Source: Nitrospiraceae bacterium
GTDB lineage: Bacteria; Nitrospirota; Nitrospiria; Nitrospirales; Nitrospiraceae
Length of the DNA: 20,000 bases
Direction: 5' to 3'
Assembly (NCBI GenBank): GCA_037442105.1
Contig: JBBIQV010000012.1
Span: forward strand, 50,067-70,066
Below, one piece after another: positions 1 to 3,000 of this stretch (positions are counted from its first letter, which is position 1; each line of letters begins with the position of its first letter). The position numbers were made by a program.

Positions 1-3000
1 CAATCATGGGCTGGAAGGCCTTGGCGCCTCATCCGAGGCGTTGCAACGGGCTCGCGACACCTGCCTGGCATGGATGCACCAAGTGGAGGCGCGATGCATG
101 CCCTTGTTCACGCAGATCGGGGTGACGGTCGAGGACAAGACCTACTCCCTGGCGATCCATTACCGCACGGCCCGGTGGAAGCCTGCCGCCAAGCATGCCA
201 TCAGGCAGTTGTTACCGCTGCTCTCCCCTGCGCCGCGCGTGCTGCCGGGAAAATCGGTGTGGAATCTCCTCCCGCCTGACGCGCCGCACAAGGGCACGGC
301 GCTGCTCGCTCTCATGACTCGGCTGGGCTGCAGGGCGGCCCTGTACATCGGCGATGACGACACGGATGAAGATGTCTTCGCGCTGCCTGACAAACGTATT
401 GTGACAGTCCGGATCGGACTAAAGAGAGACTCCGCAGCCCAGTTCTTACTCCACCGACGTTCCGAGATCACCACATTGCTTCAGTACTTGACGAACGTCT
501 GCGATCAGAAAGATTGGAAAGACACGAGAGCGGGCTGAGGTGGTTCCGGAAGATCTTTGGACAGGGTTCGACTCCGGACGCCTCCTTCGCCTGGTGACGA
601 ACTGCAACGTCGGACAGGCTTCTGGAAGCCAACTCCCTCCCCATTGACACGTTTTTCTAATGGGCGTAAGAAGAATGTGCGGCCCAACAATTATCGAGTT
701 GCAGGGGGACCGGACAGGCCGCGCGGCTGTCAGCTAGATCCCCTGGGATACTTGAAAAGGGAGGAGGGTAGCGATGGACGACCTGACTCCACCTGGCTTA
801 AACGGCCCGCCGACTCGATGGCGGGTTTCTGCTCGGTCGTGCTAGCCGATTCTCCACTGGCTGTGTCCTAACGGCACCATAGACCACCTGGTTATCAGCC
901 TGAGCACGTAGCGGAGAATCAGACGCTGGCGCGAGGAACACAAGCGCCTGGGACGAGTTTTTCCCCCGACCGGAATCCACGCTGTTCGTCATCGCGCGGG
1001 TCTTTTTGTTGGGCCGAGAAAAATGAACAGACCTTTCGGCGTCCTAAGCGCCACCCGCGGGCGGCCTCCCTCCACAGTCTAGACAGGCCGCCCGTGCAGT
1101 TTCTGCTTCGAGGTCCGAAAATAAGTGATGTTCTTCTCTGACGAGCCGTGCTCCCATGTTGACACCTTTTTTGAAGAGGAGTAAAAAGAAGTATAAGGCT
1201 CGTTGCCTTACAGTACACGATGTTGGGGATCAAGCAGAGCGCGCCTGCAGAATGAAAGTGTGATCCCCGGACAACCTCCAACCAGGGAGGAGGTGGGTAA
1301 TGGAAGACCTTAGTCCACCGGACTGGAACGGCCCGCCGAGTCAGAGGCGGGCTTCTCGTCGGTCATGCTAGCCGGTTCTCCACTGGCTGCGCCTCTCGGC
1401 GCAAAAGACCAACCGGATAGAAGCCTGATTGCGTGACGGGGAACTGGACGCTGGCGTGAGGAACACAAGCGCCTGGGGTGATTTTTCCCCCCGACCAGAA
1501 GCGTGATCCTTTCTTCCTCGCACGGGTCAGCGGTGAACCTCACAATACAATAAAAAATCTTGGCGCCCTAAGCGCCATCCACGGGCGGCCTCCCTCCTAG
1601 TCGATGGGCCGCCCGTGCTGTTTCAGAGCCAAGGGGTGCCGTTCTGCCGTGGTTGTCCGCGCGCGTAGTGGTGGCGAGTTCGTACAAACACCCCTTGCGG
1701 TTCAAGATCGATGCGGCATAAGATGGAATGCCACTTTGCCCGCTGGCTTGCAGCACGGAGGGAGTGATTGTGTTCTGGGAAACGCGGCAACCGTCGAATA
1801 CGCCCAACCGATCCTGTTCGTTTTGCGGAAAACGCCAAGGCGTGGTCCGTAACCTGATCCAGAGCCCCACGCCTTACAAGTGCGATTCCTGCCGGAGCGG
1901 ATCCACGCTGCTGATCTGCGAGGAGTGCATTCAGCGCTGTTCCACTTTCGTGGATAAGGAACAAAACGGGGCGAAGGGCTCGTCCTGCTCCAAGCCGTTG
2001 GTGGTTCCCAAGCCGGCGGAGATCAAAGCGACGCTCGATGACTACGTGATCGGGCAGGATCGCGCCAAGAAAGTCCTCTCGGTTGCAGTGCACAACCACT
2101 ATAAACGGATTTTGAACCGTGACCGGCTCACCCACGTCGATCTGCAGAAGGGTAATATCATGATGATTGGGTCGACGGGGACCGGCAAGACGCTCCTGTC
2201 CCAGACCCTGGCGAAGATTCTCCACGTCCCTTTCGCCATCGCCGATGCCACCACCCTGACGGAGGCCGGCTACGTGGGAGAGGACGTCGAGAACGTGGTG
2301 CTCAAGCTCCTGCAGAACTGTGACTACGACGTGAAGCGGGCCGAAACGGGAATCATTTACATCGATGAGATCGACAAGATCAGCCGGAAGTCCGAGAGCG
2401 CCTCGCTGACGCGAGATGTGTCTGGCGAAGGTGTTCAGCAGGCGCTGCTGAAACTGGTGGAGGGGACCATCTGCAACGTGCCGCCGAAGGGCGGACGCAA
2501 ACATCCGGAGCAGGACTACATCCGCGTGGATACTACGAACATCTTATTTATCTGCGGCGGGGCCTTCGTGGGACTGGACCAGATCATCGCTCAGCGTACG
2601 ACGTACAAGCGAGTAGGATTCGATGCGAGCGACCCGACGACTGAGATTGACGGCCACACCGACGCGCTCAGCCGCCTGCGCTCTGAGGACTTGCTGAAGT
2701 TCGGACTCATTCCGGAGTTTGTGGGCCGATTTCCCGTTCTGACGACCCTGTCAGACCTGGACGTTCCCGCCCTAATCCGCATCCTGACGGAACCCCGCCA
2801 TGCGCTGGTCAAGCAGTATGAGGCGCTCTTCGAGCTCGAGGGGGTCCGGCTTCAGTTTACCGACGCGGCAGTGAAAGCCGTCGCGCGTCGTGCTGCATTG
2901 ATGAAAACCGGCGCGCGGGCGCTCCGCACGATCCTGGAAGATGTCATGCTGGATCTCATGTACGATGTACCGACGATGGGCGGTGTGAAATCCGTGGTCA

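Follow-up and report, generated by a model that had tools for sequence, protein, structure and literature searches.

What kind of RNA is encoded by two similar units that lie near the start of the window (the whole stretch of 20,000 nucleotides of a Nitrospiraceae genome that was analysed here), and what could it do in the cell? The genome-wide survey's note had described them as copies of a conserved non-coding RNA. As detailed below, the comparison of many copies argues for a structured RNA that is also translated over a few codons.

Two tandem copies on the + strand

The two units lie in tandem at ca. 678-1103 and 1193-1624, both on the + strand as are all their features, and are 74.9% identical over 350 nt, which confirms the ~75% first noted. 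They are the only copies of the RNA in the source genome, which is 87% complete. Copy 1 is preceded by the promoter-like sequence TTGACA-N17-TAAGAA (644-672, with TTGACA at 644 and TAAGAA at 667) and copy 2 by TTGACA-N17-TAAAAA (1159-1187, with TTGACA at 1159 and TAAAAA at 1182). The RNA of copy 1, with ends placed according to motifs, would be about 425 nt long, and that of copy 2 about 430 nt.

From 5' to 3', copy 1 is predicted to comprise a 5' hairpin domain (707-749) formed by GGGGGA/UCCCC and an inner GACAG/CUGUC stem, with 12 and 8 compensatory events, respectively; a strong Shine-Dalgarno (SD) sequence (759-769); a mini-ORF of 23 codons (774-845); a long branched rod (804-1002), opened by GGCCCG at +31 from the A of the AUG and closed by CGGGUC, with 9, 10, 24 and 5 compensatory events per helix; a hairpin near-invariant in sequence, GGCG(U/C)-CC(U/C)AA-GCGCC (1038-1052); and a terminal GC-rich hairpin followed by a weak U-run (1056-1103), the probable terminator, in which 10 of 11 pairs are doubly changed. 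In copy 2, a strong SD (1284-1294) precedes a mini-ORF (1300-1371) with Ser-Pro-Pro-Asp as codons 5-8, followed by the rod domain (1330-1528), for which folding of the single sequence favours a local GGCCCGCC hairpin, and by a region (1562-1624) holding the invariant hairpin (1562-1576) and the terminal hairpin with its U-run (1580-1624). The combination of SD, ATG and a tiny frame reported earlier is thus found twice, with ATGs at 774 and 1300, both frames being here of 23 codons. A scan of the window for tRNA and tmRNA found none.

Promoter, terminator and expression

The proposal that each copy has its own promoter and terminator stands as regards the motifs, since TTGACA-N17-TA is kept in the 107 full-length copies compared and the terminal hairpin is retained, but the -10 box usually lacks its final T, the U-run is weak (CTGTTTC), and a consensus scan of the window called no promoter and no + strand terminator. 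The terminator pairs have a probability of 1.00 in all three ribosome states modelled, and no antiterminator state was obtained by equilibrium folding.

Expression was assessed in a relative, from RNA contigs that carry no strand or end information and come from runs chosen for holding the stretch. The two copies of this relative are covered in RNA libraries of four studies, far more deeply than the flanking genes, and exact RNA contigs fall between the predicted start and the terminal hairpin. The RNA is apparently transcribed separately and seems to reach high abundance in Nitrospira-type metatranscriptomes. As for the flanking genes, their missing RNA cover is a weak hint only.

Support for the folded structure

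Folding z-scores were -2.1 for copy 1 and -3.6 for copy 2. A tree-aware count, carried out on the same alignment on which the structure had been predicted, rendered 113 compensatory events for the 119 predicted pairs; sliding the partners reduced this number to 14-23. In covariation tests against a tree-based null, no base pair was individually significant: with the 34 sequences tested after a strict motif filter, which kept 38 of 137, no pair exceeded the null maximum (best E 0.55), and with 107 sequences, for which the best E was 0.13, only pairs of the terminal hairpin approached significance. For this hairpin, none of 500 shuffles matched the observed measures, and 29 events were counted on the tree. 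Sequence comparison therefore supports the structure at the level of helices, for the long rod and the terminal hairpin; to this extent the earlier claim of a fold backed by compensatory changes holds, but it does not extend to individual pairs.

The rod, of ~200 nt, and the invariant 3' hairpin are conserved within the family of origin (f1), and the latter (1038-1052 in copy 1) is also found in a second family of the order (f3); being conserved in sequence, it has no covariation support. The 5' hairpin domain is missing or altered in short and distant copies, and in the rod GGCCCGCC could instead pair locally with GGCGGG to form a hairpin. Two other pairings were set aside: a three-pair CCN/NGG hairpin over codons 7-11 suggested by RNAalifold, which showed only one tree event, and the pairing of a 3' CCUCCC loop with the RNA's own SD, since the C-rich loop of the terminal hairpin is not universal and is missing in many copies.

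A mini-ORF under selection at the protein level

As judged by sequence comparison, the mini-ORF is the most conserved part of the RNA across the whole order, and it evolves as a protein. The selected core spans codons 1-8 and reads M-D/E-D/E-x-T/S-P-P-G/D, its family-wide form being M-[DEN]-[DE]-x-[TS]-P-P-[GD]. For codons 2-8, dN/dS is ~0.25, with 64 synonymous versus 47 non-synonymous changes where the expected synonymous share is 0.26 (p ~1e-12), whereas it is ~1.4-1.5 for codons 9-23; neither these later codons nor the shifted frames show protein-level selection. Pro6-Pro7 is present in 107 of 107 copies, in which changes are synonymous only. Across the order, Ser5 is encoded by both AGY and TCN and Pro6 by all four codons, and codon 8 is Lys or Asn in many copies of the family f2. 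Three-base periodicity is confined to the mini-ORF. The predicted SD pairing has a family median of -11.3 kcal/mol versus -5.7 kcal/mol for 922 long ORFs of the genome, a comparison that is partly circular since a G-rich SD pattern had served to select the family set. A second ORF, a frameshift product and a hydrophobic toxin were considered and rejected, there being no coding signal past codon 8.

The protein-like evolution of its most conserved part indicates a translated or dual-function RNA and not a plain non-coding one, so that the earlier description stands in that this is a new structured RNA family, but not in that it is purely non-coding. Neither can we uphold the proposal that the SD pairs with, and is masked by, the downstream sequence ACUCCACC: the helices concerned show 0-1 compensatory events, and the RBS window has -11.1 kcal/mol against -11.5 kcal/mol in synonymously shuffled sequences, being lower in 45 of 113. 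The conservation of ACUCCACC is better explained by the coding of Thr-Pro-Pro than by an anti-SD role.

Fixed distance between the AUG and the GC helix

The GC helix begins exactly 30 nt after the A of the AUG, at +31, in 107 of 107 copies, in contrast with the 15 columns upstream of the AUG, which vary in 18 of 107. The frame ranges from 8 to more than 30 residues, and early stops at codon 9 or 10 occur while GGCCCG remains at +31, which argues that the spacing matters and that the peptide tail does not. In 32 loci from f2 and f3, bases +31 to +35 are paired with a mean probability of 0.90 versus 0.70 when the downstream part is shuffled, a modest difference, some of these copies being no better than their own shuffles. 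In a model with Pro7 in the P site, the helix would sit at the mRNA entry channel, and stem-loops at 11-12 nt from the first P-site nucleotide are described to hinder A-site binding (PMC7282821).

Distribution and novelty

The RNA is near-universal in f1. A covariance model of the core detected it in 47 of 64 genomes of f2 and 13 of 17 of f3, and in none of 4 of f4, and the SD-ATG-Pro-Pro core was present in all 32 f2 and f3 loci fetched and examined; the statement that it occurs in none of the other families has thus to be abandoned, two further families of the order having it. Outside the order, it was found in none of the 117 genomes of a phylum sample. A single match in a class sample of 71 (L288) turned out on inspection to be an ordinary gene start, and a weak hit (L293) was also false, so that matches near E 1e-4 need inspection. 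Two patterns gave no match in viral contigs, and plasmid collections gave none.

No Rfam family (Rfam 15) matched at the gathering threshold in window positions 400-2000, as had been noted, the best scores being those of mir-663 (25.4/75 bits) and RsmY (19.1/57 bits, E 0.056), and four distant loci also gave no Rfam match. Housekeeping RNAs (tmRNA, RNase P, SRP, 6S) were rejected as candidates, as none of their family models matched; tmRNA, RNase P and SRP sit elsewhere in the genome, and so does a 6S-like match below the cut-off. A search of the literature outside subscription journals and the supplement of a 50-genome ncRNA survey (PMC11109978) rendered no paper on this RNA or on such a regulatory RNA in Nitrospira-type bacteria, and the accessible text of an N. 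moscoviensis transcriptome paper makes no mention of ncRNA or tmRNA (PMC6606698). A new, conserved, structured and separately transcribed RNA family is supported by these results.

A possible ribosome-trapping RNA and its alternatives

Comparison of the copies reveals a promoter-like motif, a strong SD, a translated frame, a GC helix at +31, a folded body and a terminal hairpin. The reading that we prefer, to which we would give not quite an even chance, is that of a free-standing RNA on which a ribosome becomes trapped at Pro-Pro and which works as a sensor or a sink of translation capacity. Part of this reading is that the molecule may be a chromosomal RNA of dual nature, built to load a ribosome and to hold it after seven codons, for which the balance tips narrowly towards doubt. 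We infer the pausing from motif and geometry only. The ribosome would pause when its P site is occupied by Pro7-peptidyl-tRNA and its A site by Gly or Asp, the known EF-P-dependent pause state. Counted from the first P-site base, the helix would then be 12 nt away and located at the mRNA entry channel; a further risk of ribosome destabilisation would come from the acidic N-terminus. The pause at PPG is described as one in which the P site contains peptidyl-tRNA-Pro and the A site Gly, and PPD as frequent among strong EF-P-dependent pauses, but many PPX sites are described to show no pause in vivo (PMC4140641). Both efp and csrA are present in the source genome. When EF-P, Pro-tRNA, Mg2+ or energy suffice, the ribosome would pass, unzip the 5' strand of the rod and remodel or expose the RNA; when the same factors are short, it would stay, and the RNA would remain folded and protected. 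The weakest step is the output, which would be exerted in trans, since the gene downstream is not constant and none of the modelled states lacks the terminator: an abundant RNA could be a sink for ribosomes, EF-P or tRNA-Pro and thereby damp translation. It could also be the case that the folded body and the invariant 3' hairpin are offered to a partner only in the stalled state.

The alternative that survives best, although we regard it as unlikely, is a leader-peptide attenuator of the MgtL type acting in cis, in which the behaviour of the ribosome on an acidic, Pro-rich frame would set the read-through (e.g., Rho-dependent) into the next gene, free-standing copies being orphans or giving antisense read-through. 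Like MgtL, whose acidic residues and prolines near the N-terminus are suited to pausing or intrinsic ribosome destabilisation and control mgtA (PMC12856214), the RNA has a short ORF under selection that contains Pro and acidic codons. Variants that are short and lack the 3' hairpins directly precede a clpX paralogue (L079, L088, L089) or a universal-stress-protein-like gene (L281, L237), and the same-strand genes behind long copies include clpX, CBS-domain and MscS genes. However, of 91 copies with a downstream ORF found, this ORF is convergent, on the opposite strand, in 51 and on the same strand in 40, and the same-strand genes share no function; a minority of short variants may fit. Of the convergent cases, 36 are not independent, as they share one neighbouring gene family and probably represent one inherited locus. 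MgtL is the 5' leader of one transporter gene, mgtA, and acts via Rho (PMC12856214), whereas most Nitrospirales copies have a terminal hairpin of their own and are followed by a gene that is convergent or unrelated. The absence of an antiterminator state in equilibrium folding also speaks against attenuation, and the MscS gene behind the L077 copies has, in the deepest run, a depth of 0-28 versus thousands on the RNA, a weak hint in the same direction. With respect to output in trans, the 40 of 91 same-strand genes and the short variants ahead of clpX-like and other genes fit a role in cis and count against it.

Pro-Pro-centred stalling for regulation is also the principle of the RAPP/RGPP arrest peptides (ApdA, ApdP, CruR), whose motifs are described as located at the C-terminus of longer uORFs upstream of the regulated gene and as having an Arg at the second position ahead of Pro-Pro (PMC12992588). 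In the Nitrospirales RNA, in contrast, the selected Pro-Pro lies at codons 6-7 without Arg, and the later G-P-P has no coding signal: the six residues most often found at codon 10 do not include Arg, coding selection is absent over codons 9-13, and the stop may precede G-P-P.

It is quite unlikely that the molecule is a trans-acting structured RNA, such as a protein sponge, a scaffold or a base-pairing sRNA; in that case, the only role of the SD and of the Pro-Pro frame would be to park a 5' ribosome and stabilise the transcript. The rod and invariant hairpin conserved within f1, the high apparent abundance, the presence of csrA and the tandem multi-copy layout, which is the arrangement of sibling sRNAs, are consistent with it, but from one family to another it is the peptide core that is kept, the body of the RNA being strongly divergent, and the C-rich loop is not general. 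A CsrA sponge in particular would have to rely on ca. 8 GGA motifs in the consensus (counted by eye) that are mostly in stems, and the RsmY model scored well below its threshold. Compared by description, OLE, the raiA motif, ROOL and GOLLD are similarly RNAs of several hundred nt, with a conserved fold, lineage-restricted and apparently abundant; the Nitrospirales RNA differs in having no Rfam match, a simple rod and hairpins that diverge between families, and a translated frame as its constant part.

That the released peptide is the product, a short acidic Pro-containing motif for protein binding whose synthesis would be controlled by the rest of the molecule as a structured UTR, is improbable: it agrees with the strong SD and with the selection on codons 2-8, but a length of 8 to more than 30 residues without selection after codon 8 does not favour it, and it leaves unexplained the fixed helix spacing that persists past early stops.

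The mRNAs of type I toxins (e.g., hok, aapA, ldr) come in tandem copies, each with a promoter and a terminator of its own, and they can form both long-range pairs and an alternative local hairpin; the Nitrospirales RNA shares these features. An RNA toxin or type I toxin-antitoxin locus, functionally related to proline-codon CreT and held by an unknown antitoxin, is nevertheless highly improbable in spite of this likeness and of the same minimal anatomy as CreT, because a conserved hydrophobic ORF is lacking (20 loci of the 107-copy set have candidates, which are scattered and do not share a position), antisense promoter-like motifs are few (one simple pattern gave 4 hits in the 107 copies), the annotated neighbours include no cas gene, and the collections of viral contigs and plasmids that were searched gave no match; moreover, the RNA is near-universal in f1 and apparently abundant. 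The RNA is thus unlikely to be a type I toxin or CreTA, and in most cases it is probably no leader.

The proline-codon CreT of Pseudomonas aeruginosa type I-F CRISPR loci resembles the Nitrospirales RNA in combining an SD with a GC-rich hairpin and a mini-ORF in which one Pro codon directly follows another. According to the accessible text of the preprint, SD, two Pro codons and hairpin suffice for CreT to inhibit translation, it acts via translation of its RNA and not via a protein product, and the spacing of the hairpin does not matter (bioRxiv 10.64898/2026.06.02.729485). CreT is described there as minimal, with a 15-nt ORF and the stop right after Pro-Pro, located in cas loci and silenced by CreA-guided Csy, whereas the Nitrospirales RNA measures 300-440 nt, encodes an acidic N-terminus, keeps the distance from the AUG to the helix fixed, is near-universal within its family, seems to be expressed and shows no link to cas: no Cas domain was detected among 44 neighbouring and window proteins scanned, nor was Cse2, the only one sought genome-wide. 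Extending the ribosome-trapping reading, it is conceivable but rather unlikely that abundant, free-standing bacterial RNAs of this kind have evolved convergently and form a class so far unrecognised, which this RNA would represent in the Nitrospirales; such RNAs would capture elongating ribosomes via a Pro-Pro mini-ORF and an entry-channel helix, as an EF-P-tuned throttle or store of translation for slow growers.

Implications for Nitrospira-type bacteria

Nitrospira-type bacteria, including the complete ammonia oxidisers, carry out nitrification in soils, water and treatment plants. A tiny Pro-Pro frame on which a ribosome would stop right at the onset of a stable helix suggests an RNA that senses or parks ribosomes, and the order-wide presence of an RNA with a selected Pro-Pro stall frame leads to a precise and testable hypothesis, namely a pause at codon 7 together with a helix at +31. 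If the RNA indeed parks ribosomes or titrates EF-P, it would represent a non-toxic, chromosomal use of the principle just described for proline-codon CreT, and it may provide a handle on the idling of slow growers. Its abundance, moreover, could make it a marker of activity for the Nitrospira-type group.

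Two tandem units and their surroundings

Two tandem units on the + strand (about 678-1103 and 1193-1624) lie between the end of a trehalose-phosphatase gene (538) and the probable start of a clpX paralogue (1770). They are 74.9% identical across 350 nt, in agreement with the genome-wide survey's note, which had put their identity at 75%, and its statement that no Rfam family matches was borne out, since nothing came close to a gathering score. Each unit comprises TTGACA, 17 nt, a hexamer starting with TA, a G-rich SD, an AUG (774 in copy 1, 1300 in copy 2) opening a frame of 23 codons, a small conserved hairpin and, at the end, a GC-rich hairpin whose U-run is weak. 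A search of the window's genome (87% complete) gave no third copy; the tmRNA, RNase P, SRP and 6S-like RNAs all map elsewhere in it, the 6S-like RNA (G000:C13:14223-14387) with a score of 35.4 bits, short of the 46.4 that Rfam requires. The ClpX paralogue (1770-3050, +) and a second ClpX, encoded on contig C51, are 61% identical. Further along the window are a 319-aa ORF without Pfam match (3630-4589, -), with formiminotransferase, TusA and DsrE-like genes nearby, and, by eye, a series of short gene pairs resembling type II toxin-antitoxin modules (13700-19500) and a transposase-like ORF (18121-19497).

Distribution

By DNA similarity the unit was found in 158 of 200 Nitrospiraceae genomes and in none of 16 from three other families of Nitrospirales. 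The earlier claim that no other family has it holds by that measure, but not by a covariance model of the 100-nt SD-ORF core (built on 52 sequences), which matched 61/65 genomes of Nitrospiraceae, 47/64 of a second family (f2), 13/17 of a third (f3) and 0/4 of a fourth. Both the SD and the Pro-Pro frame are present in every one of the 32 loci examined in f2 and f3; TTGAC lies upstream in most of these loci, and many score with the 3' hairpin model; their RNA body is shorter and different, with GGCCC-like bases retained at position +31 of the frame and mostly predicted to be paired. A pattern scan of the genome collection rendered at least 120 stretches, and among the 80 listed with titles 78 were labelled Nitrospira, Nitrospiraceae, Nitrospirae or Nitrospirota and two 'uncultured bacterium'. 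Outside the order, none of 117 genomes in a phylum sample matched, a single match in a class sample (1/71) was judged false, and the viral contigs and plasmids searched gave no match. The number of matches per genome ranges from one to five, and tandem arrangements are common. Two unpublished genomes contributed, neither being the sole basis of any claim: G081 (locus L026) is one row of the 107-copy and of the 55-copy alignments, and G006 is in the per-genome copy tally and possibly contributes to the 113 cores of the RBS/codon-choice set.

Expression in a relative

RNA data were available for L077, a relative's locus with two copies, in 4 runs from 4 studies (out of 24 runs and 10 studies) selected for holding that stretch. 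Contigs heap on both copies, the best 181-nt bin reaching depths of 430, 238, 3121 and 62515 vs at most 2, 0, 1 and 103 in bins outside them, although these depths are pooled over relatives, the contigs reveal neither strand, ends nor true level, and RNA libraries can contain DNA. Six mismatch-free contigs fall wholly within the span from predicted start to terminal hairpin, the most 5' of them ending about 10 nt inside that start. Two contigs from other strains span two tandem copies, which may reflect read-through. An insertion sequence with a DDE transposase (L077:3023-3777) separates the copies; in RNA contigs of other strains the copies are joined directly, without it.

Structure of the RNA

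From 236 HMM hits, 169 of them full length, 107 non-redundant full-length Nitrospiraceae copies (mean identity 65%) were aligned, and RNAalifold predicted a 5'-3' closing stem, a 5' hairpin, a long branched rod, which would extend from the GGCCCG at +31 to about 200 nt further, and two 3' hairpins. Across the 119 pairs, 113 events were counted in which both partners had changed along one tree branch and pairing was preserved, vs 14-23 with slid partners, the structure having been predicted from the same rows; no individual pair was significant after correction. Compensatory changes, which had been taken to back the closed multi-branch structure, support the rod (9, 10, 24 and 5 events), the 5' hairpin (12 and 8) and the terminal hairpin (29, confirmed on a separate alignment), but not the closing stem (4 events, vs 5 in one slid control) or the helices surrounding the SD (0-1). 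In most copies GGCCCGCC could instead form a local hairpin with GGCGGGC, and the single-sequence fold of copy 2 favours this form.

A frame that evolves as protein, at a fixed distance from a helix

Judged by its evolution, the mini-ORF is translated. In the 107 copies, whose selection rested on similarity over the whole RNA rather than on the peptide, Met at codon 1 and Asp or Glu at codon 3 occur in 105 each, codon 8 is Gly or Asp in 106, and codons 6 and 7 are Pro in all, with 12 synonymous and no non-synonymous changes. Codons 2-8 show 64 synonymous vs 47 non-synonymous events (dN/dS about 0.25, p about 1e-12, without transition correction), and ratios exceed 1 in the two shifted frames and in codons 9-23. 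Across the order Ser5 is drawn from both codon boxes and Pro6 from all four codons; one set behind this result was picked by a pattern demanding Pro-Pro, so that only codon choice is informative there. The pairing of the SD with ACUCCACC proposed in the survey's note can form, as is expected wherever Pro codons follow a strong SD, but is no stronger than with synonymous codons. Frames have 8, 9, 14, 16, 21 or 23 codons, occasionally more, and the spacing from AUG to helix is 30 nt in 107/107. Because the end of the frame varies and GGCCCG is kept at +31 even in frames stopping at codon 10, the selected unit, on these alignments, is the first seven or eight residues together with a helix at fixed distance.

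Gene context and mode of action

A downstream ORF was called mechanically for 91 of the 107 copies, 51 on the opposite and 40 on the same strand, some of these calls being probably spurious. The largest group consists of 36 copies convergent with an amino-acid permease gene, which lies about 60 nt off where its call extends to the end of the gene. Upstream, a PPK2 gene often adjoins. Among the neighbours on the same strand are clpX, CBS-domain and MscS genes and proteins without Pfam family, with other genes in f2 and f3. Twelve copies are followed, on their own strand, by a Pfam-less protein of one family, about 330-390 aa long (for example L003:177-1346 (-), L068:3292-4284 (+) and L008:2391-3458 (+)), and at L163 and L137 a divergent copy is followed, about 380-410 nt past the mini-ORF start, by a hydrophobic ORF of 27 codons that has a strong SD. 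At L157:254-327 (+) the two 3' hairpins stand alone, just before another element copy and after the stop codon of a gene whose end resembles ammonia monooxygenase subunit C; this 3' module may serve as a terminator on its own.

That the RNA is a cis-acting leader appears unlikely for the family at large. In folds that masked the ribosome footprint, the terminal hairpin stayed closed throughout. Some short variants, a minority, have no 3' hairpins and continue into a clpX paralogue or a presumed universal stress protein gene, and in another genus (L079, L088, L089) such shortened elements directly precede the same kind of clpX paralogue. The short promoter-SD-Pro-Pro variants at L281:1434-1991 (-) and L237, some 150-250 nt before what is presumably a universal stress protein gene, are candidates for a true leader role. 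A sponge or sRNA in which the ribosome would stabilise the transcript seems rather doubtful, a functional peptide improbable, and an RNA toxin quite improbable.

The RNA failed defining tests of housekeeping RNAs, Rfam families, CreTA, type I toxin systems and Csr sponges, and most copies failed those of leader attenuators. No description of such an RNA was found in the literature covered, the supplement of one relevant survey lying outside it. In its action on the frame it would most resemble CreT and MgtL.

We tentatively prefer, as somewhat short of probable, the reading that the RNA traps ribosomes, that their release unzips the rod and that the output lies in trans. When EF-P is lacking, PPG stalls ribosomes, the P site then holding peptidyl-tRNA-Pro and the A site Gly, and PPD features frequently among strong pauses, though many PPX sites show none (PMC4140641); a stem-loop placed at the mRNA entry channel, 11-12 nt from the P site's first nucleotide, hinders A-site binding (PMC7282821). 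For Pro7 in the P site, the distance to the helix is 12 nt; where the same work phrases this distance as a spacer after the codon, 12 nt fits Pro6 instead. Acidic residues and Pro near the N-terminus of MgtL destabilise or pause ribosomes (PMC12856214), and Pseudomonas CreT inhibits translation with an SD, two Pro codons and a hairpin (bioRxiv 10.64898/2026.06.02.729485). These parallels, the 12-nt distance and the presence of efp in the window's genome underlie the trap reading, by which some trigger would make a ribosome pause on the mini-ORF, the ribosome, once released, would unzip the rod and the RNA may act in trans.
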